Source: an uncultured Gemmatimonadaceae bacterium (GTDB taxonomy: Bacteria > Gemmatimonadota > Gemmatimonadetes > Gemmatimonadales > Gemmatimonadaceae). Taken from it: DNA of 64,000 nt. Positions 9,753-55,567 of the stretch are shown here, one piece after another; position 1 is the stretch's first letter; the number at the start of each line of letters is the position of its first letter. The stretch is taken from NCBI GenBank assembly GCA_963724885.1, contig CAVRWG010000002.1, positions 114,150 through 178,149 of the forward strand. Reading direction: 5' to 3'. The translations under genes and the position numbers were made by a program. Under the pieces are notes generated by a model. It was not told the origin of the DNA and did no database searches. It worked only from the letters and a program-made list of their open reading frames with translations.

Positions 9753-11177
9753 TTATTTCTTCCGCGCCAGCTGCTCCACGACGTCCCACTGGAACCGCAC
9801 GAACTTGTGCAGCTCGCTCTCCAGGATGCGTTCCTGGTCGCTGTGCGCGCCGAACCCCTTGGGCCCGTCCTCGACGTCGAACGCGGGGCCGATACCGTAA
9901 CATTGCATGCCTTTCGCGCGGAGATAGGCCATGTCGGTCGCGCCGGTGAGCATGGTCGGCAGCGTCACCGTCTGATAGTGCCGCGTGACGGCGGCCTCGA
10001 TGGCGCGGAACGCATCTGTGTCGAGTCGTGCCTGGGGCGTCTCGGGACGCACGTCGCGCCGCGCGTAGGCGACGGTGATGGCCGGGTCGTTGATGACGCC
10101 GCGCACGGTCTCGAGGAACGCGGCGGTGTCCTCGCCGGGCACCATGCGGACGTCGAGCGTCGCCTTCGCCTCCGACGGGATCACGTTCACGCGGTACCCC
10201 GCCTGGACGATGTTGGGCGAGATGGACGTGCGGATGACCGACGCGTGCGCCGGCTCGAATTCGAGGAAGTACTCGTCGGTGACGGCGACGCTCGTGCCGT
10301 CGTTGCCGGTGATCGCGCGATACCGGCCGGCGCTGTCCGCGCCGGAGATGGACGCGAGCCGCTGGAAGTAGGTGCGGGTCGTCTCGTTCAGCTTGATGGG
10401 CGTTCGATACGCGGCGATCTTCGCGACCGCCTGCGCCAGGTGCGCCACGGCGTTGCCGCGCAGCGGCACGGAACCGTGGCCCGCGGGACCGCGCGCGGTC
10501 AGCTCGATGGCGCGCGGGATCTTCTCGGTGGTCGAGACGCCGGCGAACTTGACGCGCCCGCCGACGCGCGCGACGGCGCCGCCTTCGGCGAGACAATACT
10601 CCGCTTCGATCTTCGGGAAGTGCTCGCGCGTCATGTGCTGGATGCCGACGCGCGTGGAGCCCTCCTCGCCCGCTTCCGCGAGGAAAATCACGTCGCGATC
10701 CAGCGGCACCGCGAGCCGCTTGAGTGTGAGCATGAGCATCAGGGCGGCGACCACGTTGTCCTTGTCGTCCACCGCGCCGCGGCCGTAGACGTAGCCGCCG
10801 TCGCGCGTCGCGCTGAATGGCGGGTGCGTCCACTTGGCGGGGTCCACGTTCACGACGTCCGTGTGGCCCATGATCAGCAGCGGTCTTTTCGTTCCGCTCC
10901 CCTTGAGCCGGGCCACCAGGTTGGGGCGATTCGGTTCGAGGGCGAACGTCTCGACCGGAATGCCTTCCTTCTCGAGCACCTGCTTGAGGTACTCGACGGC
11001 CGCGCGCTCCGTGCCCGGGGGATCGCTGGTGTCGAACCGCAGCAACGCCTGAAAGTGTTGCATGGTCTCGGCTTCGATGCCGGGCCAGTCGGGCTGTCGG
11101 GGACGCTGGGCCGGAGCGACTGAGAATGCGCTCAGGGCCAGCGGGAGTAGCACGTATTGTCCGAGTGAGTGACGCAT
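9753..11177 (-). CDS. M20-family metallopeptidase (secreted; dipeptidase/carboxypeptidase type)
   Basis: Signal peptide MRHSLGQYVLLPLALSAFSVAPAQ, and M20 motifs HTDVV, GAVDDK, EEGS and GGAV... across 474 aa. Confidence 0.75.
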   Translation of the reverse strand: MRHSLGQYVLLPLALSAFSVAPAQRPRQPDWPGIEAETMQHFQALLRFDTSDPPGTERAAVEYLKQVLEKEGIPVETFALEPNRPNLVARLKGSGTKRPLLIMGHTDVVNVDPAKWTHPPFSATRDGGYVYGRGAVDDKDNVVAALMLMLTLKRLAVPLDRDVIFLAEAGEEGSTRVGIQHMTREHFPKIEAEYCLAEGGAVARVGGRVKFAGVSTTEKIPRAIELTARGPAGHGSVPLRGNAVAHLAQAVAKIAAYRTPIKLNETTRTYFQRLASISGADSAGRYRAITGNDGTSVAVTDEYFLEFEPAHASVIRTSISPNIVQAGYRVNVIPSEAKATLDVRMVPGEDTAAFLETVRGVINDPAITVAYARRDVRPETPQARLDTDAFRAIEAAVTRHYQTVTLPTMLTGATDMAYLRAKGMQCYGIGPAFDVEDGPKGFGAHSDQERILESELHKFVRFQWDVVEQLARKK

Positions 11178-13364: not shown

Positions 13365-13485
13365 TCCCTCGACACCTCGCTGAACCGTCTCACCTCTTCA
13401 CCGGGGTCAGGTAACCCAAGCGCCATTCCCGGTGTCGAATTCGGGCCGACCCGTTCGACTACTCGCAACCCTGAATGGAGGACCC

Positions 13486-13845
13486 ATGCGCTACCTGGCA
13501 CTAGTCTACGAAGACGAAAAACTCTGGGAGACGATGCCCAAGGACGAAGCCGAGAAAGTGTTCGGCGAATACTTCGCCTTCACGGACGGCATCAAGAAGA
13601 CCGGACATCATCTCGGGGGCGACCCGCTCCAGCCGACCACCACGGCCACGACCGTCCGCGTTCGCAACGGCAAGATCACGACGACCGACGGCCCGTTCGC
13701 CGAGACGCGCGAGCAGCTCGGGGGCTACTATCTGCTCGAGGCCAAGGACCTCAACGACGCGATCAGCGTCGCGGCGAAGATTCCCGGCGCGAAACTCGGG
13801 AGTGTCGAGATCCGGCCGGTCATGGAAGTCATGGGTCCATCGTGA
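13486..13845 (+). CDS. YciI-like (YCII-related) small protein
   Basis: MRYLALVYEDE...GPFAETREQLGGYYLLEAKDLNDAISVAAKIP, the classic YCII fold signature. A good RBS (aatggagga) precedes it, and it sits upstream of an ECF sigma factor as is commonly seen. Confidence 0.65.
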   Translation: MRYLALVYEDEKLWETMPKDEAEKVFGEYFAFTDGIKKTGHHLGGDPLQPTTTATTVRVRNGKITTTDGPFAETREQLGGYYLLEAKDLNDAISVAAKIPGAKLGSVEIRPVMEVMGPS

Positions 13846-13979: not shown

Positions 13980-15254
13980 GTGCTCATGACAGAGAACACG
14001 CAGTTGAGCATTCATGGCCAGGACGTTCGCGAGCGCGTCGATTCGATCTACCGCTCCGATTCCCGCCGCGTCCTGGCCACCCTCATCCGCCTGCTCGGCG
14101 ATTTCGACCTCGCCGAGGAGGCTCTGCACGACGCGTTCGTCGCGGCGGTCGAACAGTGGCCCGTCGCCGGTGTGCCCGCGAATCCGCGATCGTGGCTGGT
14201 CTCGACCGGCCGGTTCAAGGCGATCGACGCGATCCGGCGGCGCGCGAAGTTCGACGCGTCCCTCGACCACATCGCGCTCGAGCTGGAACGCGGCGGCAGC
14301 GAGCAGTCGCACCACGATCCCGATGCCGTCGAGGACGACCGCCTGCGTCTCATCTTCACGTGCTGCCATCCGGCCATCCCGGCCGACGCGCGCGTCGCAC
14401 TGACGCTGCGTGAGGTCTGCGGCCTGACGACCGAGGAGATCGCGCGCGCGTTCCTGACGAGCGCCCCCACCGTGGCGCAGCGCATTGTGCGCGCCAAGAA
14501 CAAGATTCGAGTCGCGCGCGTTCCGTATCAGGTGCCGGAACGCTCCGAGCTGTCCGAGCGGCTGGACGGCGTCTTACGCGTGATCTATCTGGTCTTCAGC
14601 GAAGGGTATGCCGCGTCGTCCGGCGGCTCGTTGACGCGGCACGATCTCTCCGCCGAGGCCATCCGCCTCGGGCGGCTGCTCGTGGAGCTGCTTCCCGAAC
14701 CGGAGGCGCAGTCCCTGCTCGCGCTCATGCTGCTGCACGAGTCGCGGCGCGCGGCGCGCACGTCGTCGTCGGGGGACGTCATGCTGCTCGACGACCAGGA
14801 CCGCTCGCTGTGGAATCGCGCGCAGATCGCGGAGGGCACGGCGCTCGTGGAGCGCGCCCTCTCGCTGCGGCGCGTTGGGCCGTTCGCCGTACAGGCCGCG
14901 ATCGCGGCGGTGCACGCCGAAGGCGCGAGTGCCGACGTCACCGACTGGGCCCAGATCGTGGGCCTGTACGACGTGCTGCTGCGCCTGGACGCGTCGCCGG
15001 TGATCGAGCTGAATCGCGCCGCGGCCGTGGCGATGCGCGACGGGCCCCGCGCGGGGCTCGCGCTCATCGATGCGATCTTCGCGCGCGGCGAGCTGACCGA
15101 ATACCACCTGGCCCACTCGGCGCGCGCGGATCTGCTGCGGCGCCTGGGCGAGCCGGGTGAAGCGCGGGCGTCGTACCAGCGGGCGCTCGGGCTCGCGCGG
15201 CTCGAGCCGGAGCGCCGGTTCCTCGAGCGCCGGCTGGGCGAGCTCACCTCCTGA
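13980..15254 (+). CDS. ECF-type RNA polymerase sigma factor with extended C-terminal domain (SigJ/ECF41-like)
   Basis: Sigma-2 region (LIRLLGDFDLAEEALHDAFVAAVEQW) and sigma-4 HTH (LTLREVCGLTTEEIARAFLTSAPTVAQRIVRAKNKI) followed by an approximately 200-aa C-terminal extension. Confidence 0.75.
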   Translation: MLMTENTQLSIHGQDVRERVDSIYRSDSRRVLATLIRLLGDFDLAEEALHDAFVAAVEQWPVAGVPANPRSWLVSTGRFKAIDAIRRRAKFDASLDHIALELERGGSEQSHHDPDAVEDDRLRLIFTCCHPAIPADARVALTLREVCGLTTEEIARAFLTSAPTVAQRIVRAKNKIRVARVPYQVPERSELSERLDGVLRVIYLVFSEGYAASSGGSLTRHDLSAEAIRLGRLLVELLPEPEAQSLLALMLLHESRRAARTSSSGDVMLLDDQDRSLWNRAQIAEGTALVERALSLRRVGPFAVQAAIAAVHAEGASADVTDWAQIVGLYDVLLRLDASPVIELNRAAAVAMRDGPRAGLALIDAIFARGELTEYHLAHSARADLLRRLGEPGEARASYQRALGLARLEPERRFLERRLGELTS

Positions 15255-15288
15255 TTGCAGCGCGGCCGGTTCCGCAGCAATTTCGGGC

Positions 15289-16293
15289 GTGCAACTCGTC
15301 ACGCTCGACGACTACGAAGAGGCCGCGGAGGTGTCGATTCCCTCCGCGGCCTGGGAGTACATCCATAGCGGCGCAGCCGACGAGCACACGCTGCGATGGA
15401 ATCGCGAGGCGTTCGCGGCGCTGCGACTGAGCCCGCGCGTCCTCAACGACGTCAGCCGGATCGACACGCGCCTTCGCCTCTTCGGTCAGGACCTCGAGCA
15501 TCCGGTCATGCTGGCGCCCATCGCTGCGCAGGGTCTGGTGCATCCCGACGCGGAAGTGGCGACCGCCATCGGGGCCCATGCCGCGAGAGCGGGGATGGTG
15601 TTGAGCAGCTACACGTCCAAGCGCGTGGAGGACGTCGCCGCCATCGGCGCGGCGCCGCTCTGGTTCCAGCTCTACCTCCAGGACAGGGAAGCGACGCGCG
15701 CGCTGATTCCGGACGTGGTCGCGGCCGGGTGCACCGCGCTGTGCGTCACCGTGGACACACCGACCAGCGGCGCCCGCGACCGGCAGGCGCGCGCCGCGTT
15801 CGAGTTTCCCGCGGACCTGCCGTATCGCACGGTGGAGCCGGGCGACAATCCCTGCACCTGGGACGACATCGTCTGGATTCGAGAGCTTGCGAAAGTGCCC
15901 GTGCTGCTCAAGGGGATCATGCACCCGGACGACGCGGACCTGGCGATCCAGGCGGGAGCGGCCGGCATCGTGGTGTCGAACCACGGCGCGCGCAACCTCG
16001 ACACTGCGGCGCCGACGATCGACGCGCTGCCGGCGATCGCCGAACGGGTGGGCGGGCGGATCCCGCTGCTGCTGGACGGCGGCATCCGGCGTGGCACCGA
16101 CGTGCTCAAGGCCCTCGCGCTCGGCGCCGACGCCGTGATGATCGGGCGCCCGTACATCTACGGGCTCGCTGTCGGCGGGTCCGCGGGCGTGAGCGCGGTC
16201 GTGGACATTCTGGTGAGGGAGCTGCAGTTGGCCATGGCGCTCGTGGGGCGGCCGAGCATCGCGCGACTGGATCGCTCGGTGATCTGGACCTAG
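15289..16293 (+). CDS. FMN-dependent alpha-hydroxy-acid dehydrogenase/oxidase (L-lactate dehydrogenase / glycolate oxidase family)
   Basis: LLDGGIRRGTDVLKALALGADAVMIGRPYIYGL and VSNHGARNLD motifs. GTG start chosen after the sigma stop; the track start at 15157 would overlap the sigma gene. Confidence 0.75.
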   Translation: MQLVTLDDYEEAAEVSIPSAAWEYIHSGAADEHTLRWNREAFAALRLSPRVLNDVSRIDTRLRLFGQDLEHPVMLAPIAAQGLVHPDAEVATAIGAHAARAGMVLSSYTSKRVEDVAAIGAAPLWFQLYLQDREATRALIPDVVAAGCTALCVTVDTPTSGARDRQARAAFEFPADLPYRTVEPGDNPCTWDDIVWIRELAKVPVLLKGIMHPDDADLAIQAGAAGIVVSNHGARNLDTAAPTIDALPAIAERVGGRIPLLLDGGIRRGTDVLKALALGADAVMIGRPYIYGLAVGGSAGVSAVVDILVRELQLAMALVGRPSIARLDRSVIWT

Positions 16294-16822
16294 CTCGTTC
16301 GGCGCGGGCGAGTTCGGCGCGGTCGGCCTCCCATCGCCCACCACTCTCGAGTCGCTGCCGAGGGTTTCGCGATCAGCCACTCGCGTGGGGTCGCCCTCGC
16401 GGACCACGCTCGAGTCGCTGCGGCGTGAGGTCCCCCCGCGCGGACCACGCTGCGCTCCTCGGTCGCTCGCTGCCGCTCCGCTTCCCTGCGGTGCTCGCTG
16501 GCTGTCGGCGTCGGCGGGTGTCCGCCTCCGCCTCCAGACGGTCCGCTCAGGGGGACCTCACTCCTTCGCTACCGCGCTAGTCTCGCCACCTTCGCAGCGA
16601 AGGCGATGGCTCTCGTGCCCCCGATCGCGGCTGTGATTCAACGCCGACAGTCTTCGCCGCGCCGCACCGCAATTCCGCGAGCATGGCAGGCGATCGTGCG
16701 CCGAGTCGTGCGTGCCCAGCTCGCGTGGACTCGTGTCAGAGCGGGACCGGAGCGTGAGTTCCCTGGCCGGACCGTTGGAGCGTGAGGGCGACCCCACGCG
16801 AGGAGCCGTTAAGTTCGATTTC
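16294..16822. repeat. About 530-bp non-coding, repeat-rich gap: degenerate direct repeats (GACCACGCTCGAGTCGCTGC-like units) plus a 19-bp inverted repeat about 390 bp apart
   Basis: cactcgcgtggggtcgccctc at about 16378-16398 versus gagggcgaccccacgcgag at about 16786-16804, and repeated accac(g/t)ctcgagtcgctgc and ggagcgtgag units. There is no plausible ORF, which is unusual in this otherwise tightly packed region. Confidence 0.5.
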
Positions 16823-17317
16823 ATGCGCGAGCGTTTCCAGCTCCGGGCGTACGAGCCGGCCGACGCCGAGGCGGTCAACGCGACCGTAGTCGCGGCGTTC
16901 GGAGAGTTCGACCCGTCGCACGGCGACTGGCCGACGGCGCTGCGCAACGCGGCCGGCTCCGCGGCGCTCGCCGACGTCGGTGAGATGATCGTCGCCACCG
17001 TCGATGGTAAGGTCGTCGGGTGCATCACGTACGTCGGGCCGGGCGTCGAGAAGCAAAGCTGGTTCGAGCGGGAGTGGCCGGTGATTCGGCGTCTCGCGGT
17101 CCGCCCCGAATTGCGCGGCCTCGGCATCGGACGCGCCCTGACCGAGGAATGCATCGCCCGGGCGCGACGCGACGGCGCGGACCTCATCGCGCTCCACACC
17201 ACGCCGATCATGGACGTCGCCGTCGGCATGTACGAACGCATCGGGTTCAGCTATTTGCGCGAGGCGCCGCCAGTGGGAGACGTTCCGTACGGGATCTGGG
17301 CGAAGCGCTTACGTTGA
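16823..17317 (+). CDS. GNAT-family N-acetyltransferase
   Basis: MRERFQLRAYEPADAEAV...RRLAVRPELRGLGIGRALTEE, the canonical GNAT motif A (R-x-x-G-x-G). Confidence 0.7.
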   Translation: MRERFQLRAYEPADAEAVNATVVAAFGEFDPSHGDWPTALRNAAGSAALADVGEMIVATVDGKVVGCITYVGPGVEKQSWFEREWPVIRRLAVRPELRGLGIGRALTEECIARARRDGADLIALHTTPIMDVAVGMYERIGFSYLREAPPVGDVPYGIWAKRLR

Positions 17318-17320
17318 CTC

Positions 17321-18874
17321 ATGCGCCCGGCCGCTTACGTCGCTCTCACGCTCTGCGCCACGCTCGCGCGGGCTCAAACACCGGCGGCGCCAGTCGCCGA
17401 CACCTCGGTGCTCGCCCGGATTCGCGACGAAGGAATGAATCGTTCACGCGTGTTCGAGACCGCGGTCACCTTGTCCGACATCTTTGGTCCGCGTCTCGCC
17501 GGATCGCCGCACTACCGCGAGGCGGCCGAGTGGGCCGTGAAGGAGCTGACGTCCTACGGGCTCACGGGCGCGGCGCTCGAGCCGTGGGGGACACGCAGCG
17601 GTCGGTCCTGGACCGTGACGCGTCACTCCATCGAGATGACGGCGCCGCGCTATCAGCGCATCGTCGCGTTTCCGCGCGCGTGGAGCCCGCCGACGCCCGG
17701 TGTCGTGCGCGGGCGTCCCATCATCACGGCCATCCGCGGCGATTCCGACATCGCGAAGTATCGCGGCCGCCTCAAGGGAGCGATCATCCTCAACGCTCCC
17801 GCGCAGGTGGACGTGAACCGGTTCCGTCCCATCGCTGAGCGCTTCACGGCCGAGCAGCTCGATTCGCTCGAGCGTCTCACCGTTCCCGGCGAGCCGCGCA
17901 CGTACTGGGAGGATTCCGGCGACTACGCCGAGAACGTCCGGAAGCGACAGCACCTCCAGCAGCTCATGCGCGATGAAGGCGTCGCTGTCCTGCTCCAGCC
18001 CAGTAGCGTCACCAGCGCCGTCGCCGTGTCGAGCTACGCCGCGTACGACAGCGACGTCTCGCGCCTGGTGCCCGCGTTCGTCGTGGATCGCGGCGACTAC
18101 GACAGGCTGGTGCGACTCGTCGAGCGGGGCACGCCGCCGACGCTCGAGATCAACCTGGAGGTGCAGAGCGCGGCGCCGCGCACGCGCGTGGACTCCACCG
18201 GATACAACGTGGTCGCCGAGCTGCGCGGCACCGACCTCGCGGACCAGGTGGTCATGGTCGGCGGCCACTTCGACTCCTGGACCGCGGCGACTGGCGCGAC
18301 GGACAACGCCGCCGGGTCCGCGGTGGCCATGGAAGCGCTGCGTATCCTGCAGGCGGTCGGGGCACCGATGCGCCGCACCATTCGCATCGGCCTCTGGGAT
18401 GGCGAGGAGCACGAGGACTATTTCGGCTCGATGGGCTACGTGCGAAAGCACCTCGGCAACCCCGAGTCGATGCGACTCCTGCCGGATCACGCCAGGGTGT
18501 CGGCGTACTTCAACATCGACAACGGCACGGGGCGCATCCGCGGCCTCTACCTCCAAGGCAACACGCGCGCGCGGGCGACGTTCGCGTCCATCTTCGCGCC
18601 CCTGTCGGACCTCGGCGCGAACACGCTCACCGTGAAGAACGTGGGCAGCACCGACCACATGCCCTTCGTGTCGGTCGGGATCCCCGCCTTCACCTTTATT
18701 CAGGACCCCATCGACTACGAGACGCGCACGCACCACACGGACAAGGACGACGCGTCCTACCTGCTGCCCGACGACCTCCAGCAGGCGGCCGTCGTGGTGG
18801 CGACGGTCCTGTACCAGGTGGCAAATCTGCCCGGGCTGATCCCGCGGATGCAGCTGCCGGGTCCGAGGCGCTGA
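17321..18874 (+). CDS. M28-family aminopeptidase with PA domain (secreted)
   Basis: Signal peptide; HFDSW, DNAAGSAVAMEALR and GLWDGEEHEDYFGS motifs, the M28 zinc ligand pattern. Confidence 0.7.
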   Translation: MRPAAYVALTLCATLARAQTPAAPVADTSVLARIRDEGMNRSRVFETAVTLSDIFGPRLAGSPHYREAAEWAVKELTSYGLTGAALEPWGTRSGRSWTVTRHSIEMTAPRYQRIVAFPRAWSPPTPGVVRGRPIITAIRGDSDIAKYRGRLKGAIILNAPAQVDVNRFRPIAERFTAEQLDSLERLTVPGEPRTYWEDSGDYAENVRKRQHLQQLMRDEGVAVLLQPSSVTSAVAVSSYAAYDSDVSRLVPAFVVDRGDYDRLVRLVERGTPPTLEINLEVQSAAPRTRVDSTGYNVVAELRGTDLADQVVMVGGHFDSWTAATGATDNAAGSAVAMEALRILQAVGAPMRRTIRIGLWDGEEHEDYFGSMGYVRKHLGNPESMRLLPDHARVSAYFNIDNGTGRIRGLYLQGNTRARATFASIFAPLSDLGANTLTVKNVGSTDHMPFVSVGIPAFTFIQDPIDYETRTHHTDKDDASYLLPDDLQQAAVVVATVLYQVANLPGLIPRMQLPGPRR

Positions 18875-18915
18875 CGCGCGCGCCAGACTAGAACCGTTTT
18901 CGAAGCAGCGCTCGC

Positions 18916-19509
18916 CTAGTCCCTATACGGCGAGTCGTCCTCTTCCTCTTCCTCTTCCTCTTCCTCCTTCCGCATACCTTCGGGCGCGAGCGAGCGCGCC
19001 AGGTCGAGCAGTCCCTCGCTCAGGTGCGCGCCGAATCGCAGCAAGTTCGCGGCGCGGCTGCGCAGGCCGAGGAGGAACGCGAGCGGCGCGAGGTCGCGCT
19101 TCTTGATGTTGCAGTCGCGACAAGCCAGCACCAGGTTGTCCCGCCGGTCGTAGGCGGTCTGTCCCCGGCGCGGCGCGACGTGGTCGAGCGTGATGAGCTT
19201 CGCGGAGTAGTGGATGCCGCAGTAGGCGCAGATCGGTCCGTGCAGCCCCAGCAGCCATTCGCGAGTCGCCACGAACGCGTTGCGCGACGTGGGATGCGAC
19301 GTGAGCCCTTCGTCGGCCTTGTACGGCCCACCGCCCGCGCCCCTGCCACGTCCACCTCGACGGCGCCGCGACGTCTTCTTGCCGGTCTTCGCATGCGCGC
19401 GGGCTCCGTGCCCGGCGTGCGCTCCCGCGGCATGCTTGGCGTGCGGCGTTCCGCGCTTCTTCTTCGCGGTCTTGGATGCGGACCGCCCCCTCCCGCCCCG
19501 TCGCGCCAT
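18916..19509 (-). CDS. HNH endonuclease with Lys/Arg/His-rich N-terminus and poly-Glu C-terminal tail
   Basis: CAYCG...LTLDHV...NLVLACRDCN HNH motif. Starts MARRGGRGRS..., ends EEEEEEEEEDDSPYRD. The start overlaps the S9 peptidase stop (TGATG). Confidence 0.65.
   Translation of the reverse strand: MARRGGRGRSASKTAKKKRGTPHAKHAAGAHAGHGARAHAKTGKKTSRRRRGGRGRGAGGGPYKADEGLTSHPTSRNAFVATREWLLGLHGPICAYCGIHYSAKLITLDHVAPRRGQTAYDRRDNLVLACRDCNIKKRDLAPLAFLLGLRSRAANLLRFGAHLSEGLLDLARSLAPEGMRKEEEEEEEEEDDSPYRD
18937..18975 (-). repeat. (GAGGAA)n-type simple repeat encoding the poly-Glu tail
   Basis: The plus strand reads ctcttcctcttcctcttcctcttcctcc. Confidence 0.6.
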
Positions 19510-21605
19510 CAGACGCGACCGGGTTTGAGGAACCGGTTCAGCCAGCGCAGCTCGTTCTGCATGCGATGCACCAGGTTCCACGATCCGGTGATGCCGTGCG
19601 CCATCCCGGCGTACTGGATCATCTTCGTCTCGACGCCGTTCTTCTTGAGCGCCACGAACATCTGCTCGGCCTCCGAATACGGTACGCGCTGGTCCACCTC
19701 GCCGTGCATGAACAACGTCGGCGCCTTGACGCGGTTCGCGTACGTCAGCGGCGACTGCCGGATCATGATCTCGCGGGCCCGCTCATCCCACGGCGTGCCG
19801 AAGAACTCCGTCTCCTTGGTGCGCGCGATGTCCGCCGTGCCGTAGTCGCTCACCCAATTCACGATCCCGGCGCCAGGGATGGCCGCGGCAAACCGGTCGG
19901 GATACTGCGTGATCAGCCAGTTGGTCATGAAGCCGCCGTACGAATGGCCGATCGTCGCCACGCGGCTGCGATCGATGGGGAACCGCGAGATGGCGTAGTC
20001 GATGCCGGCAATCACATCCTCGCCGTCGCGATTGCCCCAGCCGCCCCACGTGCCCCAGAGGAACTTCTCGCCGTAGCCGGTGGAGCTGCGGAAGTTCACT
20101 TCGAGCACGAAATAGCCGTTGGCCGCGAACAGCTGGTTCTTGAAATCAAACGCGTAGCCGTCCGCCGCGTGCGGCCCGCCGTGATTGCTCACCACCAGCG
20201 GGTAGGGCCCGGCAGTCGGACGGTATCCGTGCGGCAGCATCAGCCAGCCTTCGACCTGCGTGCCGTCCTTGCTCCTGAACAGCAGCCGCTCCGCACGGCT
20301 CAGCGCCACGTCCCGCGTGAACTCGTCGTGGACGCCGGTGAGTTTCCGCTCGCCCGAGCCGTCGATGTTGGCGACGTACACCTCGGCCGGTGCCTCGAAG
20401 AGCCCCACCGTGTACGCGACGCGCCTGAACGACGAGTCGACGCTGATGGACGAGACGCGGCGTTCGCCGCGGGTGACCTGTTCCACCGCGCCGCCGGCCA
20501 CGGGGACGCGGAACAAGTGCGTCGTGCCGCCGATGCCGCCCGAGAAGTAGACGTACCTCCCGTCCGGACTCCACTGCGCGTTCGACGGCAGATAGTCCCA
20601 GTCCGCAGTCAGCAGTCGCTCGGCGCCGCCGGCTGCCGGCATGATCGCGAGATCGGTCGGTCCGCCGTGGTCGAGCCGCTTCGTGATCACCGCATCGGTA
20701 GACAGCTGCCTGGTGTAGAAAATCCAGCGCCCGTCCGGCGAGAACGAGGCGTTGGTATAGTGGTAGTCGTTGTCGGACGTCAGCCGCCGCACGTCCCCAT
20801 CACGATGCGCTACGTAGATCTCGCCGCTGCCGTAGCGCCGCTCGTCGCGGTAGCCCGAGTCGGCGGTGAACAGCAGCGTGCGCCCGTCGGGGCTCCACTC
20901 GACGCCGTTCGGACGCAGCCCGAGGCGCGTCACCTGCCGCGCGGTGCTGTCGGCCGTGCCATTCGCCGAAACAAACAGCTCCTGCGCCGGATTGACCCGT
21001 GGGTCGATGCGGTTCGGAACCGGAAACGGCTGGCCGTCGCGCTGGAAGTCGAGCCAGTCGAACTGCACGCCGCGGAACCGCTCCTCGTGACGCCGCTCGA
21101 ACTCGCTCGCGTAGGCGCGGTCCTGCCGCGGAACGATGACGTCGCGCAGCGTCGCGACGGAGCCGCCGTCGCGGCTCGGAATCGCTCGCGCGGTGCGGGC
21201 GCTTTGTGACACGCCCGGCAATTCGGCCGGCGCATCCGGCGCGGCCGGATTCACCGACCAGCGCCGGCCAGCCGCGGTGAAGGTCAGCCTGCCGTCGCGC
21301 CAGACCGGGGCCGTCGCATGCGTGCCCGCGGCGCTCACGCGTTTGTTGGTCGACGCCGCTCCTCCTGCGCTCGCCGCGACCCACACTTCGCTGCTGTCTG
21401 CGTTCGTCTCCTCGATACGACGGCTCACGGTGTACGCCACCCAGCGTCCGTCCGGCGAGATCTGTGGCGCTCCGACAGTTCGCAGACGATAGAAGTCTTC
21501 GATCGCCAGCGCGCGCGCCCCCGGCCCGCCGCCCTGCGCGAGCGCGAGTTGTGGCACGGCGCCGAGCACGAGCGCCAGATGGCGAATGGCTGGTCCACGC
21601 AGCAT
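19509..21605 (-). CDS. S9-family serine peptidase (prolyl oligopeptidase / acylaminoacyl-peptidase type with N-terminal beta-propeller)
   Basis: Signal peptide, repeated W-SPDG propeller motifs, and the catalytic GHSYGG nucleophile elbow with C-terminal Asp/His regions, across 698 aa. Confidence 0.8.
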   Translation of the reverse strand: MLRGPAIRHLALVLGAVPQLALAQGGGPGARALAIEDFYRLRTVGAPQISPDGRWVAYTVSRRIEETNADSSEVWVAASAGGAASTNKRVSAAGTHATAPVWRDGRLTFTAAGRRWSVNPAAPDAPAELPGVSQSARTARAIPSRDGGSVATLRDVIVPRQDRAYASEFERRHEERFRGVQFDWLDFQRDGQPFPVPNRIDPRVNPAQELFVSANGTADSTARQVTRLGLRPNGVEWSPDGRTLLFTADSGYRDERRYGSGEIYVAHRDGDVRRLTSDNDYHYTNASFSPDGRWIFYTRQLSTDAVITKRLDHGGPTDLAIMPAAGGAERLLTADWDYLPSNAQWSPDGRYVYFSGGIGGTTHLFRVPVAGGAVEQVTRGERRVSSISVDSSFRRVAYTVGLFEAPAEVYVANIDGSGERKLTGVHDEFTRDVALSRAERLLFRSKDGTQVEGWLMLPHGYRPTAGPYPLVVSNHGGPHAADGYAFDFKNQLFAANGYFVLEVNFRSSTGYGEKFLWGTWGGWGNRDGEDVIAGIDYAISRFPIDRSRVATIGHSYGGFMTNWLITQYPDRFAAAIPGAGIVNWVSDYGTADIARTKETEFFGTPWDERAREIMIRQSPLTYANRVKAPTLFMHGEVDQRVPYSEAEQMFVALKKNGVETKMIQYAGMAHGITGSWNLVHRMQNELRWLNRFLKPGRV

Positions 21606-21683: not shown

Positions 21684-23555
21684 ATGAGAGGGTGTCTGAT
21701 TGCACTGATCGTCGTCGCGGGCACCGCGTCGGCGCAGGCGGCTCGACCGGCTATTGAAGTTCACGAGGCCACCATCCCCGTTCTTCAGGCCGCGATGGCC
21801 GAAGGGAAAACGACATCGGCGCAGCTCGTGGACGCGTATCTCGCGCGCATCGCTGCCTACGACCAGCACGGCCCCGAGCTGAACACGATCATCCGACTCA
21901 ATCCGCATGCGCGCGCCGTCGCCGCGGCGCTGGACAGTGAGCGGCGGGCGGGGAAAGTCCGCGGCCCGCTGCATGGCATCCCGATCCTGATCAAGGACAA
22001 TTTCGACACCGGCGATCTCCCGACGAGCGGCGGCCTGCTTGCGCTGGCATCGATGCAACCGGCGGCCGACGCGTTTGTCGTAAAGCGGCTGCGCGACGCC
22101 GGCGCCGTTATCCTGGGCAAGACCAACCTGCACGAGCTCGCGCACGGCATCACGAGCGTCAGCTCGCTGGGCGGCCAGACGCGAAACCCGTACGACCCGG
22201 CCCGCAATCCCGGCGGCTCGAGCGGTGGCACCGGCGCCGCCATTGCGGCGAGCCTGGCCGTCGTGGGCTGGGGCTCCGACACGTGCGGCTCGATCCGCAT
22301 TCCGTGCGCCTTCAATAGTCTCGTCGGCCTCCGGCCGACGCTCGGGCTCGTGAGCCGCACGGGCATCATGCCCCTGTCGCACACGCAGGACACCGGCGGC
22401 CCGCTCGCGCGCACGGTGACCGACCTCGCCATCGCGCTGGACGCGTCGGTCGCTCCGGACACGACCGATCCCGCGACACGCGCCGTGAATGGGCGTACCG
22501 TCAGGGGGTTCGTGGACTCGCTGTCGCCGCGAGCGCTGATCGGCGCCCGCATCGGGCTGTTCAGGCCCCTGTTCGCCGACACCGACGACGAAATCGCGGA
22601 CACCATTCACCTGGCGCTTCGCGCGATGCAGGGCTTGGGTGCCGAGTTGGTCGATGTGCGGCTGGCTGAATTCGACAGCTTGATGGCGGGAACCAGTGTC
22701 ATCCCACTGGAGATGAAGTTCGACCTCAACGACTATCTCGCGCGGCAGGCAGGTGCCCCGGTCGCATCGCTCACTGCGGTGCTCGAGGCCGGGGTGTATC
22801 ACGAGGCTCTCGAGCCACGATATCGGTTGCGTGACACGATGAAGGTGCGCGACAGCGAGCCGTATAGACGCGCGCTCGCAAAACAGGCCGCGCTGCGCGC
22901 GCGGCTCGTGGCGCTCATGGACAGCCTGCATCTCGACGCGCTGGTGTACCCCACCATGCGGCAGCCACCCATGCTCATCGGCGATGCGCAGCCCGGCGGC
23001 ACCTGTCAGCTGGCCGCGAACAGCGGCTTGCCGGCCATCAGCATGCCCGCCGGCCTCACGCCGGCCGGTCTGCCCGTGGGCATCGAGCTTCTCGGTCGCC
23101 CGTTCAGTGACGTCCGCCTCGTTGCGATGGCATACGCCTTCGAGCTGGCGGGCCCGCAGCGTCGCGCGCCGATGACCACGCCTCCGCTGACCGCGGGGCG
23201 CGCGCCGGCGCCGGTCGATTTTGTCACCACCGCGCGAGCCGGCTCGGCGAGCGCGCGGGCACGGTTTACGTACGATCGCACCCGCAGTCGCCTCACGTAC
23301 GACGTCGCGATCGCAGGAGTAGCGCCCGAGCGCATCCACGCTGTCGTCCTGACGCGCGCGGATGCGGCCGGCTCGCGCGTGATTCATCGCCTCACCGGCC
23401 CGGGAACCACCGGCGGACGCGGCGTGCTGTCGCTCACCGCGACCGACAGCAAGGCGGTGATGGACGGCCGCGTCCGGCTCGCCCTGCACACACAAGACCG
23501 GACTTCCAGCGCTGGCGATGCCGCGCTGCGCCTCGCCGGAGGAAACAGGAAATGA
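21684..23555 (+). CDS. Amidase-signature family amidase (secreted) with C-terminal CHRD-like domain
   Basis: Signal peptide MRGCLIALIVVAGTASAQA, and the GGSSGGTGAAIAA amidase signature with a Ser-cisSer-Lys context (KDNFDT). The C-terminal 120 aa are CHRD-like. Confidence 0.75.
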   Translation: MRGCLIALIVVAGTASAQAARPAIEVHEATIPVLQAAMAEGKTTSAQLVDAYLARIAAYDQHGPELNTIIRLNPHARAVAAALDSERRAGKVRGPLHGIPILIKDNFDTGDLPTSGGLLALASMQPAADAFVVKRLRDAGAVILGKTNLHELAHGITSVSSLGGQTRNPYDPARNPGGSSGGTGAAIAASLAVVGWGSDTCGSIRIPCAFNSLVGLRPTLGLVSRTGIMPLSHTQDTGGPLARTVTDLAIALDASVAPDTTDPATRAVNGRTVRGFVDSLSPRALIGARIGLFRPLFADTDDEIADTIHLALRAMQGLGAELVDVRLAEFDSLMAGTSVIPLEMKFDLNDYLARQAGAPVASLTAVLEAGVYHEALEPRYRLRDTMKVRDSEPYRRALAKQAALRARLVALMDSLHLDALVYPTMRQPPMLIGDAQPGGTCQLAANSGLPAISMPAGLTPAGLPVGIELLGRPFSDVRLVAMAYAFELAGPQRRAPMTTPPLTAGRAPAPVDFVTTARAGSASARARFTYDRTRSRLTYDVAIAGVAPERIHAVVLTRADAAGSRVIHRLTGPGTTGGRGVLSLTATDSKAVMDGRVRLALHTQDRTSSAGDAALRLAGGNRK

Positions 23556-26282
23556 GAATACCTCGCGTCGCCGTCGTGCTTCTGTCCATCACGCTCGCCA
23601 CCAGCGTCGCCGCGCAGTCCGCCCGGATCACATCCCCAAGGGAAGAGTTCGGACACAACTTCGGCGACGACTACTTCCTGGCCAACTACAAGCAGATCGC
23701 GGCCTACTGGCAGAAGCTCGATCGTGAGTCCGATCGCATGGTGCTGCAGGAGATCGGCAAGACCGCGGAGGGGCGGCCGCACTACATGGCGATCGTGACG
23801 TCGCCGGAGAATCACCGGCGCCTGGCGCGTTTCAAGGAGATCTCGCGCCGCCTCGCGCTCGCTGAAGGCCTCTCGGAGGCCGAGGCGCGCGCGCTCGCGA
23901 AAGAAGGGAAGGCCGTCGTCTGGATCGACGGAGGGCTGCACGCCACCGAGACGCTCGGCGCGCAGCAGCTCGGCGAGATGGTCTACCAGATGGTGAGCCG
24001 CGACGACGACGAGACGCTGCGCCTGCTGGACGACGTCGTCATGCTGTTCGTGCACGCCAACCCGGACGGCAACGATCTCGTCGCCGACTGGTACATGCGG
24101 CGCGCGGTGCCGGAGCAGCGCAGTCTCACCGGCGTGCCGAGGCTGTACCAGAAGTACATCGGCCACGACAACAACCGCGACTTCTTCGCGTCCACGCAGG
24201 CCGAGACCGAGAACATCAATCGTGTGCTGTACCACGAGTGGTTCCCGCAGATCCTCTACAACCACCACCAGAGCGGGCCTGCCGGCACGGTGTTCTGGTC
24301 GCCGCCGCTGCGTGACCCGTACAACTACAATCTCGACCCGCTGCTCGTGCTGGGCTTCCAGTCGCTGGGGGCGGCCATGCACTCGCGTCTCGCTGTCGAG
24401 GACAAACCCGGCGCCACGATGCGCTCCGGCGGCCCGTACGACGGCTGGTGGAACGGCGGCATTCGCAATACAGCGGCGTTCCACAACACCATCGCCCTGC
24501 TCACGGAAATGGTCGGGAGCCCGACGCCGATGCGCATTCCGCTGGTGATGCAGCGGCAGCTGCCGTCGGCGGATCTCGCGTATCCCATCGCGCCGCAGGA
24601 GTGGCGCTTCCGGCAGTCGGTGGATTACTCCATCTCGCTGAACCGCGCGGTGCTCGACTACGCGTCGCGCATGCGGGAAAACGTCCTGTTCAACATCTAC
24701 ACGATGGGGCGTCGCTCGATCACGCGCGGCAGCACCGACAGCTGGACCGCGAATCCCAAGCGCTACGCGGAGGTCGCGGCGCGGCTCGGCGGCGGCGCCG
24801 CGCAGGCGGGTGGTGGCGGCGGGGGAGGCGCTGCGTCGGACGACGCGCGACGCGCGGCCGAGGCGGGGGCATGGAGCGAGCTTCGCAAGCCCGAGCTGCG
24901 CGACCCGCGCGCGTACGTCATTCCCGCCAACCAGCGCGACTTTCGCCACCGCGACAAAGTTCGTGAACGCGCTGCGCGAGACCGGGATCGCGATTCATCG
25001 GGCAACGCGCGAGTTCGCGGCGCAGGGCAGGACCTATCCAGCCGGCTCGTTCGTCGTGTGGACTGCGCAATCGTTCCGCCCGCACGTTCTGGACATGTTC
25101 GAGCCGCAGGTGCATCCGGACGTCTTTCCGTATCCCGGCTCGCCGCCGACGCCGCCGTACGACAATGCCGGCTGGACGCTGGCGTTCCAGATGGGCGTCG
25201 AGTTCGATCGCATTCTCGATCCCGTCACGATCGCGGGGCTCGAGCCCGTAAGCGTATGGAATCTGCCGATGCCACCGGGCAGCATCGCCGGCACCGGCCC
25301 GGGTGGCTACGTCATGCAGCGACGCGAGAACAACGCGTACATCGCCGCCAACCGCCTGCTGAAGGCGGGGCAGATCGTGCGCGCCATGCCCGGCGGCGCG
25401 CTGTTCGTGCGCGGGTCACCGGCCAATCGCCAGGTGGTCGAGCGCCTCGCCTCGGAACTTGGTGTCAACTTCGAGCGCACGAACACCGTCGTACCGGGCA
25501 ACGCGCCGGGCCTGCGTCCGGCCAGGATCGGTCTCTGGGACCAGTACGGCGGCTCGATGGACGCCGGCTGGGCGCGCTGGATCCTGGAGCAGTTCGAGTT
25601 CCCCTTCCAGCGGGTGTTCGCGCCGGAGCTGGACGCGGGCAATCTCAACGCAAAGTTCGACGTGCTCGTGTTCGTGGGCGGCGGAATTCCCGCACCGTCC
25701 CCGCGTCGCGGCGGCGGAGCCCAGCAACAGCCGATTCCGGACATCCCCGCGGAGTATCAGTCGCACGTCGGCCGCGTGACCGCCGAGCAGACGTTGCCGC
25801 GCCTGAAGGAGTTCATCGAGGCTGGCGGGACGGTGGTCGCGATCGGCGAGTCCGCGCCGCCCCTCGCGGCATTCCTGGGACTGCCCATCGAGAACCATCT
25901 CGTCGAGAACGGCGCTCCGCTGCCGCGCACGAAGTTGTACGTCCCGGGCTCGCTGCTCACCGCGCGCGTGGACACGACGCGTCCGCTGGCCGCCGGCATG
26001 CGACCGACCAGCGATTTCTTCTTCGACGACAGCCCCGTGTTCCGTCTGCATCCGAACTCGGCATCACTCGGCGTCACTCCGATTGCGTGGCTCGACAGCG
26101 CCACGCCGCTACGCAGCGGGTGGGCGTGGGGTCAGCAGTATCTGAAGGACGGGGTGATCGCGGCCGAGGCGAAGATCGGGAAGGGGAGGGCTATTCTCTA
26201 CGCGCCGGAGATCCTCAAGCGCGCGCAGCCACACGGAACATTCAAACTGCTGTTCAACGCGCTCTATCTGGGAGGCTTGTGA
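23552..26282 (+). CDS. M14-family zinc carboxypeptidase, large secreted type; apparent +1 frameshift near 24941 in a T-run
   Basis: The N-terminal frame (23552..) reads HANPDGN and other M14 motifs up to ...YVIPANQRDF. The protein then continues in track ORF 24810..26282 (ATATKFVNALRETG...). The reading frame is lost at gactttcgcc. Confidence 0.65.
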
Positions 26283-26679: not shown

Positions 26680-27090
26680 CTAGTCGCTCCCCAACGGATC
26701 CGAGCCAAACCGCAGAACATGCCCGTCCGGATCGCCGACCTTCATCTCGAGCGCCCAGGGAAACTTCTCCGGGGCGCGCAGGATGATCGCGCCTTTCTCC
26801 GTGTATTCCCGATGCAGCACTTCGACGTCCGAGACCCCGATCCAGGCCCATGTTCCAGAGTGACCCTGACCGCCCTCTGACAGGTAGATCGACGCGCCGT
26901 CCCGGCTCACGCACGTGAAGTCGTCACCGCCCCATTCGGCATTGGTGAAGCCGAGCACCCCGACGTAGTAGCGGAGGCTGCGCTGCAGGTCCGTGACGCT
27001 GAGTATCGGGTTCGCGTGCTCGAATGTCGCGCGTGCGATGCTTGCCTGTTCCATACGATCCAGCGGTGGAATGTTGCGTCCAGCATTCAT
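26680..27090 (-). CDS. VOC (glyoxalase fold) family protein
   Basis: ATFEHANPILSVTDLQRSLRYYVGVLGF...DPDGHVLRF across 136 aa, tandem to the preceding VOC gene. Confidence 0.65.
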   Translation of the reverse strand: MNAGRNIPPLDRMEQASIARATFEHANPILSVTDLQRSLRYYVGVLGFTNAEWGGDDFTCVSRDGASIYLSEGGQGHSGTWAWIGVSDVEVLHREYTEKGAIILRAPEKFPWALEMKVGDPDGHVLRFGSDPLGSD

Positions 27091-27333
27091 TAATCAACCC
27101 GACGACGCCGGCCGCAACAACAGGGCCGTCGTGTCGACTCCTCGACGATCAGTCCACGGCGCGTCTGATCGGGTGGGTGGCATCTGCCGCGCCGGCGAGT
27201 AACATCTGCGAAGGGCAAACTTCCCTTGTCATTCCGCGCGCGGCGAAGACCATGCGGTTCGTTGCCCCCCTTGTGGGTCTCCTCTCCGCCACCGCCACCT
27301 GCTGTTCAACGCACTCTACCAGGGAGAGGTGAG

Positions 27334-27801
27334 ATGAGACGCATCGCACTGCTGTTCGCAGCGACGGCGCTGGCCGCCTGCGCCAAGTCGGATCAACCCG
27401 CCGCCGACACCGCGGCTGCGGCACCCACGCCACCGCCAGCGCCGCCGCCGATCACGCTTGCCGACGTCGCCGGGAAATGGAACGTGAAGGGCATGAACGC
27501 CGCGGGCGACAGCACGCTGGTCACCTACGAGTTCAATGCGACGGCGGATACCAACGGTTGGAACCTCACGTTCCCGAACCGCCCGCCGGTTCCGGTTCGC
27601 GTCGTGGCGGTGGCGGGCGACAGCGTCACCATCGAGGCGGGCCCGTACGCGAGCGTGCTGCGTAGAGGCGTACAGGTTCGGACGCAAGGCGCGTTGCGGC
27701 TCGTGGACGGCAAGCTGGTCGGGATGACGACGGCGCGCTACAACGTGAAGACCGCCGATTCCGTCCGAGTCGTGCGCACGGAAGGCACCCGGGCGCCGTA
27801 G
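27334..27801 (+). CDS. Lipoprotein, function unknown
   Basis: Lipobox LAACAKS after MRRIALLFAATA, a Pro/Ala-rich linker, then a small beta-rich domain. Confidence 0.5.
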   Translation: MRRIALLFAATALAACAKSDQPAADTAAAAPTPPPAPPPITLADVAGKWNVKGMNAAGDSTLVTYEFNATADTNGWNLTFPNRPPVPVRVVAVAGDSVTIEAGPYASVLRRGVQVRTQGALRLVDGKLVGMTTARYNVKTADSVRVVRTEGTRAP

Positions 27802-29346
27802 ATGCGACGCTCGATCGCCGTCAGCCTCACCCTGGTCGCGTGCGCCGCACAGGCGCACGCGCAACGCCCCCGCATCGCCGTCACGACGAACGCGCGCTAC
27901 GACGCGTCTACCATCCAGGCGTATCGCGGCGCCCACGCCGACGTCTACGCCCACATCGACGCCAACCAGGCGGCGCACCTCGCCAACCTCCAGCGCTGGG
28001 TGAAGCAGCCCAGCGTGAGCGCCGAGAACAAGGGCATCGCGGAGATGGCCGCGATGCTGCGCGACGACCTCGCGAAGATCGGCTTCAAGGAAACGGAGCT
28101 GGTTCCCACGAAGGGTCATCCCGGCGTCTTCGGCTTCTACGACGCCGGCGCTCCGAAAACGCTGGTCATCTACATGATGTACGACGTGCAGCCGGTCGAG
28201 CCGCAGGGCTGGCGCGTGAGCGCATTCGACGGCGCCATCGTCGATCACCAGCTTGGCAAGGTGCTCATGGCGCGCGGCGCCACCAACCAGAAAGGACCGG
28301 AGCGCGCGTTCCTCAACGCGCTCGAGTCCATCATCGCGGTCCGGGGCAAACCGCCGGTGAATCTCCTCGTCGTCGCCGAAGGCGAGGAGGAGCTCGGGTC
28401 GATCAACTACCCCGAGGTCATCGCCAAGTACGCCGACCGCCTGCGCCGCGCCAACGGCGTCTTCTTCCCGTTCAACAGCCAGGGACCCGACGGACGCGCC
28501 ACGATGTCGCTGGGCGTGAAGGGCATCGTCTACTTCGAGCTGGAAGCGCGCGGCGACTCCGCGCGTGGCCCGCGCGTGGCGGAGATCCACGGCTCGTTCA
28601 AGGCCATCGTGGACGCTCCGGCCTGGCGCCTGACGCAGGCGCTCGCGTCGCTCGTGTCCAAGGACGGCAACACCATTCTCGTGCCCGGCTACTACGACGC
28701 CATCCGGCCGCCGAACGACGAGGAGCAGCGGCTCCTCAACGGCATGCTCGTCGACTTCGGGCGCGGCGAGGCGGGGCTGCGCAATGCCATCGGCGTCAAT
28801 CGCCTGATCGACGGCTGGACCGGCGCGGACGCGCTCACCCAGTACCTGTTCAACACGACGCTCAACATCGACGGCATGTGGTCGGGTTACAGCGGTCCGG
28901 GGATGAAGACGATCCTGCCGCACGTCGCGACGGCGAAGCTCGACTCGCGCCTCGTGCCCAACCAGACGCCGGACGAGGCGCTGCGCCTGATTCGCGCGCA
29001 CCTCGACGCGCAGGGCTTCAAGGACATCATCCTGCGCAAGATGAGCGGCTACCCGCCGGCGCAGACGTCGGTGAACACGCCGCTCGTGCAAGCCGCGATC
29101 GGCGTCTACAACAAGTACGGCATGACGCCGAGCATGTCGCCACGGCTCGCGGGCAGCGCGCCGTACTATGTCTTCACCGAGACGCTGCGGCTCCCGCTCA
29201 TCGCGGGCGGCATCGGCTACGGCTCGGGCGCGCACGCGCCGAACGAGTTCATGGTCGTGGAGCCGGCCGCCGGCTCGCGCATCGGGGGCCTGGCCCAGAT
29301 CGAGAAGTTCTACGTCGATCTGCTCTATGCGCTTGCTGAGAAATAG
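27802..29346 (+). CDS. M20-family dipeptidase/peptidase (secreted)
   Basis: Signal peptide, and M20 motifs (MMYDVQPVEP, GATNQKGP, EGEEELGS) across 514 aa. Confidence 0.8.
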   Translation: MRRSIAVSLTLVACAAQAHAQRPRIAVTTNARYDASTIQAYRGAHADVYAHIDANQAAHLANLQRWVKQPSVSAENKGIAEMAAMLRDDLAKIGFKETELVPTKGHPGVFGFYDAGAPKTLVIYMMYDVQPVEPQGWRVSAFDGAIVDHQLGKVLMARGATNQKGPERAFLNALESIIAVRGKPPVNLLVVAEGEEELGSINYPEVIAKYADRLRRANGVFFPFNSQGPDGRATMSLGVKGIVYFELEARGDSARGPRVAEIHGSFKAIVDAPAWRLTQALASLVSKDGNTILVPGYYDAIRPPNDEEQRLLNGMLVDFGRGEAGLRNAIGVNRLIDGWTGADALTQYLFNTTLNIDGMWSGYSGPGMKTILPHVATAKLDSRLVPNQTPDEALRLIRAHLDAQGFKDIILRKMSGYPPAQTSVNTPLVQAAIGVYNKYGMTPSMSPRLAGSAPYYVFTETLRLPLIAGGIGYGSGAHAPNEFMVVEPAAGSRIGGLAQIEKFYVDLLYALAEK

Positions 29347-43149: not shown

Positions 43150-43330
43150 GCGTAAGGCTATCGCGGACCACGCGGAACACGCGGACAACTGACGCGGACC
43201 TTCAACAGCCGGTCCTTGCCTTGCGCGACTGACTCTCCCGCAAAAACCAACAGAAGCAGTTGCAGGTCCGCGTGTTTTTTCCGCGTCGTCCGCGTAGTCC
43301 GCGTTAACCGTACGCCACCGGGAGCTCTGA
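43150..43330. repeat. Intergenic palindromic repeat element, copy A (ACGCGGA x3-4 ... GCAGGTCCGCG ... TCCGCGT x3)
   Basis: ctatcgcggaccacgcggaacacgcggacaactgacgcggacc ... gcagttgcaggtccgcgtgttttttccgcgtcgtccgcgtagtccgcg. Shares architecture and motifs with copy B at 49160-49330. Confidence 0.55.
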
Positions 43331-55500: not shown

Positions 55501-55567
55501 GGTTGCGCTCGAATGATGATGTGAGGTGCCTCCAGCGCGTGCAGAGTGATAGCTAGGGAGGAGGCAT

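Follow-up and report, generated by a model that had tools for sequence, protein, structure and literature searches.

Positions 16294 to 16822 of a 64,000-nucleotide (nt) stretch of DNA from an uncultured Gemmatimonadaceae bacterium (contig CAVRWG010000002.1 of assembly GCA_963724885.1; hereafter, the window) separate an FMN_dh family oxidase gene from a GNAT acetyltransferase gene. We found that this 529-nt spacer is a real, noncoding element rather than a missed gene, and that it is probably functional, judging from its comparison with related lineages. All 529 nt are extra relative to four of those lineages, by which measure the spacer is an insertion, and two blocks within it are conserved well above the synonymous rate in a second lineage. 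The explanation that we favor, if tentatively, is that it is a clade-specific cis-acting spacer or leader that would uncouple the GNAT gene and the adjoining M28 peptidase gene (GNAT-M28) from an upstream σ-oxidase operon.

Noncoding character of the spacer

The initial annotation of this DNA had described the interval as long and free of any credible open reading frame (ORF), and our analysis bears this out. The spread in GC content between codon phases is ≤0.15 across 16300 to 16780, compared with 0.4 to 0.5 in the flanking genes, which is usual for this genome; positions 16305 to 16755 constitute the longest run of low codon periodicity in the window (the second longest lies at 27045 to 27450). 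No Pfam family matched any of the six frames of the interval at E ≤1, and a six-frame query against 5.8e9 proteins yielded nothing at E ≤10. On these three grounds, we rejected a hidden or decayed gene. A decayed first copy of the GNAT gene was attractive because a GNAT gene and spacer in tandem would measure ~510 to 560 nt; we rejected it as well, since the GNAT hidden Markov model (HMM) gave negative bit scores in all frames, and since both nhmmer (a DNA HMM) and Smith-Waterman alignment to the GNAT DNA performed no better than with shuffled sequences.

An assembly chimera was rejected because the same flanking genes occur in a related contig (P0002) and because an independent Logan assembly (ERR12040024) contains a 2,429-nt contig that covers ~16536 to 18964. 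The latter encodes exactly a 187-amino-acid (aa) ORF that reads through 16754 to 16822, which argues that the right end of the interval, including most of the right arm of the inverted repeat described below, is not an artifact of a single assembly.

The window is 68.3% GC, rather than the 70% first reported, and the interval 70.9%. The accompanying statement that gaps between genes in this window are mostly under 100 bp is roughly correct, except that about a dozen other gaps exceed 300 nt on a crude ORF map based on GC content at third codon positions; two of these are gene cassettes, and most of the others are probably genes missed by the crude map. Its largest gaps (0.7 to 1.4 kb, at 1576 to 2888, 22607 to 23982, 27091 to 27801, and 56370 to 57298) may hold genes of weaker codon bias or further noncoding elements.

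An insertion behind the oxidase gene

The spacer extends exactly from the oxidase stop codon to the GNAT start codon, within the following set of genes:

13432-13845: YCII gene (Pfam)
13980-15254: gene for an ECF σ factor with DUF6596 and TPR (Pfam)
15289-16293, plus strand: FMN_dh gene (α-hydroxy-acid/4-hydroxymandelate oxidase-like), 334 aa (Pfam PF01070, E 2.5e-119)
16294-16822: noncoding spacer, oxidase stop codon to GNAT ATG, 529 nt (flat codon-phase GC; no Pfam or protein match in six frames; absent from four relative lineages)
16823-17317, plus strand: GNAT acetyltransferase gene, 164 aa (Pfam)
17321-18874, plus strand: M28 peptidase gene, next after GNAT (Pfam)
18916-19581, minus strand: HNH protein gene (Pfam)
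19509-21605, minus strand: S9 peptidase gene (Pfam)

A database protein (P0121) is identical to the oxidase (100% over 334 aa), and another (P0001) is identical to the GNAT protein (100% over 164 aa); the closest GNAT relatives show only 59 to 69% identity over their full length. The mechanically called oxidase ORF begins at a GTG at 15157 and overlaps the σ factor gene by 98 nt; comparison with the database entry and with relatives, whose length it matches, indicates that the true start is almost certainly the GTG at 15289.

In other lineages, the oxidase and GNAT genes are tightly coupled. The two genes overlap by 4 nt in the P0002 contig, whose gene order (YCII, ECF σ, FMN_dh, GNAT, and, on the minus strand, HNH and S9) is that of the window. 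They are separated by 2 nt in loci L083 to L085 and overlap by 4 nt in L086; in L087, GNAT overlaps by 1 nt with the end of an upstream gene that is cut by the contig edge and was not identified. The closest relatives of the oxidase itself (P0122 and P0123) belong to lineages without the spacer. Relatives collected from GTDB genomes by means of the M28 protein (L001 to L080) are not syntenic and thus uninformative on the interval.

A further locus, L093, encodes an oxidase that is 85% identical and is followed by an unrelated 142-aa ORF; its homology to the window ends at 16295, 2 nt past the stop codon. This endpoint, together with the differences among junctions, argues that the oxidase 3′ boundary is a recurrent breakpoint. 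More generally, comparison of 15157 to 19600 with L081 to L087, L093, and the P0002 and P0104 contigs marks the region as a hot spot of gene-order change: depending on lineage, the genes that come after GNAT are HNH/S9, Gluconate_2-dh3/GMC, or M28; in L082, two dehydrogenase genes precede GNAT rather than follow it. Of the loci compared, only two, the window and the P0104 contig, have an M28 gene next to GNAT. In the latter, a third lineage for which we have only a gene map, a 51-aa partial gene is separated by a 534-nt gap from a truncated GMC gene, after which come GNAT, M28, and APP1 (minus strand). Judged from gene positions alone, its gap is compatible with the same spacer accompanied by stepwise deletion of the two dehydrogenase genes.

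Conserved blocks in a second lineage

A partial homologue of the spacer is found in L082, a 4.6-kb Logan contig from SRR15183929 whose GNAT gene is the closest at the DNA level (79.7%). The contig opens with a noncoding stretch (1 to 365), followed by genes for Gluconate_2-dh3, GMC oxidoreductase, and GNAT and, on the minus strand, an HNH-like protein and S9. At the contig start, 67 nt (L082 3 to 69) match window positions 16506 to 16573 at 87% (E 1e-14 to 3.5e-19), and L082 157 to 180 match 16719 to 16743 at 88%; global alignment extends a looser, collinear match to approximately L082 280, and the homologue spans the right ~300 nt of the spacer. The two conserved segments are as follows:

16506-16576: block A, conserved noncoding core (87% to L082 3-69, with a 1-nt indel)
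16719-16748: block B, GCTCGCGTGGACTCGTGTCAGAGCGGGACC (BLAST segment 16719-16743, 88% to L082 157-180; holds the a2 arm motif, 16720-16733)

For comparison, the window and L082 agree at 59% of third codon positions in GNAT, 65% in HNH, and 62% overall, and no run of 68 third-position sites exceeds 72%. Conservation of block A ranks with the best 4 to 8% of coding windows (binomial P = 8e-6), and the 1-nt indel that it contains speaks against a small ORF hidden there. With respect to the genes that follow, blocks A and B are oriented alike in the window and in L082. Outside them, the L082 alignment is mostly near neutral and rich in indels.

This near-neutral remainder would fit a spacer that is a functionless by-product of rearrangement, that is, junction DNA left by shuffling and deletion of the Gluconate_2-dh3, GMC, and GNAT genes and then enlarged by local direct and inverted duplications through slippage or template switching. 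So would the gene order 3′ of the oxidase, which differs in every lineage seen, and the similar divergence (6 to 14%) of the direct and inverted repeats within the spacer, as expected from one local burst of duplication. We nonetheless consider such an origin quite unlikely, because blocks A and B are 87 to 88% identical versus 62% at synonymous sites, because ~0.5 kb of noncoding DNA has been kept in compact genomes despite 41% third-position divergence in GNAT, and because we found no similarity to GNAT or to neighboring DNA that would reveal a source. Taken together, the insertion, the constrained blocks, and the fact that ~0.5 kb of noncoding DNA has been retained make a neutral remnant less likely. 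The initial annotation had named such a remnant as the outcome if the interval were not transcribed, not conserved, and not present elsewhere: we found no other copy in the data searched, yet part of it is conserved in L082.

Repeats within the spacer

The spacer is built of direct and inverted repeats, the most prominent of which is a perfect 19-bp inverted repeat: CTCGCGTGGGGTCGCCCTC at 16380 to 16398 recurs as its exact reverse complement at 16784 to 16802, and 385 nt separate the two arms. In 60 dinucleotide shuffles, no perfect inverted repeat was longer than 13 nt. That this repeat is perfect had been recognized from the outset; its placement at the borders of the interval was incorrect, as the left arm lies 86 nt and the right arm 20 nt inside the ends. 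The match extends to 27 nt at 89% (16380 to 16406 and 16776 to 16802), and weak inverted similarity continues inward to approximately 16494 and 16664. A second inverted repeat, 25 nt long and 88% identical (16422 to 16446 and 16540 to 16564), is nested within the first. We also confirmed the degenerate direct repeats that had been reported, in the form of a 28-nt repeat at 86%, a partial third copy, and a 15-nt tandem duplication. Both inverted repeats and the direct repeats exceed what shuffled controls produce. The repeat features are as follows:

16380-16406: arm a1, outer inverted repeat (perfect 19-mer at 16380-16398)
16776-16802: arm a′, outer inverted repeat (perfect 19-mer at 16784-16802; also complementary to 16720-16733)
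16422-16446: arm b1, inner inverted repeat (25 nt, 88%)
16540-16564: arm b′, inner inverted repeat (within conserved block A; also complementary to 16761-16775)
16297-16325, plus strand: 15-nt tandem duplication, GTTCGGCGCGGGCG/GTTCGGCGCGGTCG (directly follows the oxidase stop codon)
16331-16358, plus strand: direct repeat copy 1, CCATCGCCCACCACTCTCGAGTCGCTGC, 28 nt (repeat search)
16394-16421, plus strand: direct repeat copy 2, 28 nt, 86% to copy 1 (overlaps the inner end of arm a1)
16435-16451, plus strand: direct repeat partial copy 3, 17 nt, 94% to 16394-16410 (repeat search)

Two of the arms could each pair in more than one way: a′ with a1 (19 perfect bp) or with a2 at 16720 to 16733 (12 of 14; helix I9), and b′ with b1 (22 of 25) or with b2 at 16761 to 16775 (13 of 15; helix I7). 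Duplication of a larger direct module (16380 to 16450 versus 16720 to 16805) was rejected: its score of 23 is not significant (shuffles, 15.7 ± 3; maximum, 26), and only the short repeats D6 and D8 hold up among such signals.

The arrangement of arms resembles that of miniature inverted-repeat transposable elements (MITEs) and foldback elements such as Correia, which likewise have terminal inverted repeats (here 19 to 27 nt), a subkilobase length, no ORF, and an intergenic location. A decayed, nonautonomous element of this kind, which landed in the oxidase-GNAT junction of a subclade ancestor and is now immobile, would account for the long quasi-palindrome with its 27-nt terminal repeat (19 nt perfect) and its inverted similarity fading inward to ~115 to 140 nt per arm, as well as for an insertion that left the ORFs on both sides of a compact operon junction intact. 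It might also explain why two independent k=31 Logan contigs, L082 and that of ERR12040024, end within ~30 nt of each other (at ~16504 and ~16536) inside the GC-rich hairpin domain, as repeats can cause; these ends fit equally well with coverage dropout in a 75 to 80% GC hairpin.

Several observations weaken the MITE-like origin that the initial annotation had offered as one of three options, and it now seems to us unlikely. No target-site duplication adjoins the arms: the flanks are CGATCAGCCA and GAGCCGTTAA (...TCAGCCA and GAGCCGT), and they share only an offset AGCC. About 106 nt of extra DNA lie outside the arms. No second copy of the spacer was found by BLAST in the 64-kb window, in 0.93 Mb of related loci, or among viral contigs, plasmids, and phages (a single 65-nt match, in Halobaculum, is due to chance), nor was one revealed by the search of 5.8e9 proteins; a 19-mer scan of JGI metagenome contigs returned only five chance matches in unrelated contexts. 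Beyond the sequences covered by these searches, a small family may exist in the rest of the source genome. No transposase or recombinase occurs among the window ORFs scanned against Pfam. In a test for REP-type elements, we found no family of repeated short palindromes elsewhere in the window and no Y1 transposase among the ORFs scanned. Finally, L082 has kept internal blocks but not the right arm of the outer repeat, whereas MITEs usually show the reverse.

Invertible promoters, such as fimS and the invertons of Bacteroides, likewise have short, perfect inverted repeats that are spaced by a few hundred base pairs and lie directly upstream of a gene. Here, a recombinase would flip the 385-nt segment between the 19-bp repeats and thereby turn GNAT-M28 on or off. 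We regard this as highly improbable: the segment is 71 to 75% GC rather than AT-rich and contains no promoter-like site; the window ORFs scanned include neither a serine nor a tyrosine recombinase, though one might be encoded elsewhere in the genome; the right arm of the inverted repeat is not conserved in L082; and blocks A and B face the same way with respect to the genes that follow them in the two lineages.

Predicted fold and known RNA families

The spacer is predicted to fold into an exceptionally stable structure, more so on the minus strand. The whole interval has a folding energy of -286.7 kcal/mol (z -4.05) on the minus strand and -267.9 kcal/mol (z -1.59) on the plus strand, with equal mean energies for shuffled sequences of the two strands; for 16375 to 16807, the minus-strand z score is -4.9. 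In a sliding window at 16400 to 16599, the corresponding values are -6.4 (minus) and -1.8 (plus), whereas neighboring coding windows have z scores within about ±2. One local fold is the most stable:

16415-16572, minus strand: long hairpin domain (b1 with b′) and nested hairpin 16506-16535 (-97.2 kcal/mol, z -7.0)

On the plus strand, the same segment gives -85.7 kcal/mol (z -4.0). Base composition is asymmetric as well: the plus-strand C/G ratio is 1.1 to 1.5 from 16290 to 16727, and the minus strand is G-rich over 16300 to 16700.

These features raise the question of whether the spacer is an independent gene for a structured noncoding RNA of ~430 nt, transcribed from the minus strand and antisense to the operon, in which the a1/a′ stem would close the molecule and the b1/b′ domain would form its core. 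Minus-strand folding is clearly the better of the two, despite equal means for the shuffled sequences; the minus strand is also rich in G, conserved block A falls within the hairpin domain, and by our own reading a nested hairpin in the minus-strand fold (16501 to 16534) has two symmetric GA/GA internal loops. We still judge an independent RNA gene unlikely. DNA palindromes yield low z scores without being RNAs; the single wobble-compatible mismatches in the two long helices split one per strand, again by our own reading; neither strand of the partial homologue in L082 shows significant structure; no sites resembling promoters or terminators were seen; and the equivalent of 1.6 sequences is too few for a covariation test. 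Nor did Rfam 15 covariance models, a check suggested by the initial annotation, identify any family: the only match at E ≤10 in 15500 to 17500 is a 14.7-bit chance match (gathering score, 34.7), positions 1 to 420 of L082 gave none, and nothing in the whole window reached a gathering score. For the structured noncoding RNA first proposed, then, the evidence is mixed: the very stable, strand-favoring fold speaks for it, and the lack of an Rfam match and of a fold significantly more stable than shuffles in the partial L082 homologue speaks against it.

The alternative partners of a′ (a1 or a2) and b′ (b1 or b2) would make a structured RNA a conformational switch. In this form, the spacer would be a clade-restricted, ~430-nt structured RNA of Gemmatimonadaceae, antisense or a cis leader, that acts on read-through from the ECF σ and oxidase genes into GNAT-M28; we think such a switch improbable. 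In L082, which lacks the left half of the spacer, including the 5′ partners of both long helices, the short helix 16720 to 16733/16789 to 16802 shows one possible compensatory change (G-C to A-T) beside a new mismatch, in what is a single, partial homologue.

A possible cis-acting leader

The role that we tentatively assign to the spacer, that of a clade-specific cis-acting spacer or leader, takes both its position and its fold into account. It may have entered at the oxidase 3′ boundary when the downstream gene order was rearranged or replaced, and it would belong to the 5′ side of the downstream unit, which is GNAT-M28 here and Gluconate_2-dh3-GMC-GNAT in L082. In both lineages, the spacer lies 5′ of the unit that includes GNAT, and the first gene of that unit differs between them; this argues for a cis element tied to its locus and against a mobile element. 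Its presence would break the tight oxidase-GNAT coupling seen elsewhere (a 4-nt overlap or a 2-nt gap) and add, behind the ECF σ and oxidase genes, ~400 nt of C-rich RNA that is not translated and in which long-range pairing (a1/a′ and b1/b′) forms highly stable hairpins. Once folded, such RNA could stop, process, or shield read-through transcripts, and the spacer could also supply the upstream or leader region of GNAT-M28. We infer that the spacer acts at the RNA level, on which strand it does so, and that it insulates the two units from each other or contains a promoter. Of the three options first offered (structured RNA, MITE-like element, and regulatory leader for the downstream GNAT/M28 genes), the leader fits best, as the element also lies upstream of the L082 version of the downstream unit.

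Several points weigh against this role. The strand with the stabler fold is the minus strand, which is antisense to the genes that the spacer supposedly serves, and the partial L082 homologue folds no better than shuffles to any significant degree (z -1.4 and -0.3). By our reading of the alignment, L082 retains neither helix I7 nor helix I8. The spacer is known from two sequences only, one of them partial, too few for covariation statistics, and its left 210 nt (with a1, b1, and the direct repeats) have been seen in one assembly only. A consensus scan of the spacer found no σ70-like promoter and no intrinsic terminator, and block B (TGTCAGAGCG...) does not fit an ECF42-type motif that is present elsewhere in the window, on which basis an ECF42-type promoter in block B was rejected.

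That motif, TGTCGAATTC-N13/14-(T/A)TCGAC, occurs twice in nearly identical form. One copy (13433 to 13459, plus strand) falls at the start of the YCII gene or immediately before it, and that gene in turn precedes the gene for the ECF42-like σ factor (13980 to 15254); the other (22650 to 22677, minus strand) lies ~45 nt upstream of an unannotated 249-aa ORF (21857 to 22606, minus strand). A third match to a looser pattern falls inside the oxidase gene (15974 to 16002). The loose pattern is not significantly enriched (three found versus 1.2 expected), and we take TGTCGAATTC-N13/14-TCGAC to resemble the ECF42 consensus.

Comparison with other intergenic elements

The ERIC/IRU, REP/BIME, pneumococcal BOX, and mycobacterial MIRU elements are multicopy palindromic elements of 35 to 150 nt that lie within operons and are transcribed with them. 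The spacer resembles these elements in being noncoding and hairpin-forming, in lying exactly between the stop and start codons of codirectional genes, and in being built of short direct and inverted modules; by analogy, an effect on mRNA stability or polarity is plausible. It differs from them in its length of 529 nt and in having no second copy in the data searched, and neither a REP-like 5′ GTAG motif nor a RAYT gene was seen. The spacer belongs to a familiar type, that of structured intergenic elements within operons, of which it is a so far unclassified case; only its size, fold stability, and conserved core are unusual.

The window also contains two cassettes with genes of family PF05635 ("23S rRNA intervening sequence protein"), at 55441 to 55997 (gap 55463 to 55994) and 61355 to 61871. 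The genes (55571 to 55936, plus strand, E 3e-34; and 61469 to 61828, plus strand, E 2e-36, with a weak bAvd-like match) encode four-helix-bundle proteins of 119 to 121 aa that are 45 to 46% identical to each other. Each cassette fills the whole gap (532 and 517 nt) between codirectional minus-strand genes, to which it is antisense; the flanking genes encode PIG-L and FtsX in one case and MacB-type permeases in the other. The cassettes are 58 to 60% GC, and their arms (~45 to 55 nt by our own reading, with longest exact runs of 17 to 25 nt) are purine-rich simple repeats (AAGGCGG/AAGGCAG and GGAGGGA). They look like insertions of a type defined by architecture and not by conserved ends.

Like these cassettes, the spacer fills a gap of nearly equal length (529 nt) between codirectional genes, has long inverted repeats, and has its stabler fold on the strand antisense to the flanking genes, as their functional strand is. 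Unlike them, it lacks an ORF, is 71% GC, has nonrepetitive arms, and shows no tblastn similarity to either intervening sequence protein. We rejected a decayed PF05635 cassette because tblastn with both of these proteins of the window returned only noise (best E, 0.03, with a 610-nt target).

Other features of the window

Peptidase genes are unusually numerous in the window: besides the M28 gene at 17321 to 18874 and the S9 gene at 19509 to 21605, it contains M20/M28-type genes at 9753 to 11177, 27802 to 29346, and 43216 to 44886, an M3 gene at 35815 to 38016, and an M15 gene at 48067 to 49146. No tRNA or tmRNA genes were found in the window.

Implications

Gemmatimonadota have few cultured members, and our literature search for noncoding elements described in this phylum yielded only general papers on the phylum. 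The practical weight of the spacer is small: it has been found in two, perhaps three, uncultured lineages and is attached to no phenotype or widely important pathway. Its conserved 70-nt noncoding core with an exceptionally stable predicted hairpin may reasonably be considered a candidate cis-regulatory or small-RNA motif of a new kind. If our interpretation is correct, a structured noncoding spacer can split a tightly coupled gene pair into separately controlled units, and can then persist, its core conserved, while the genes around it continue to be shuffled.

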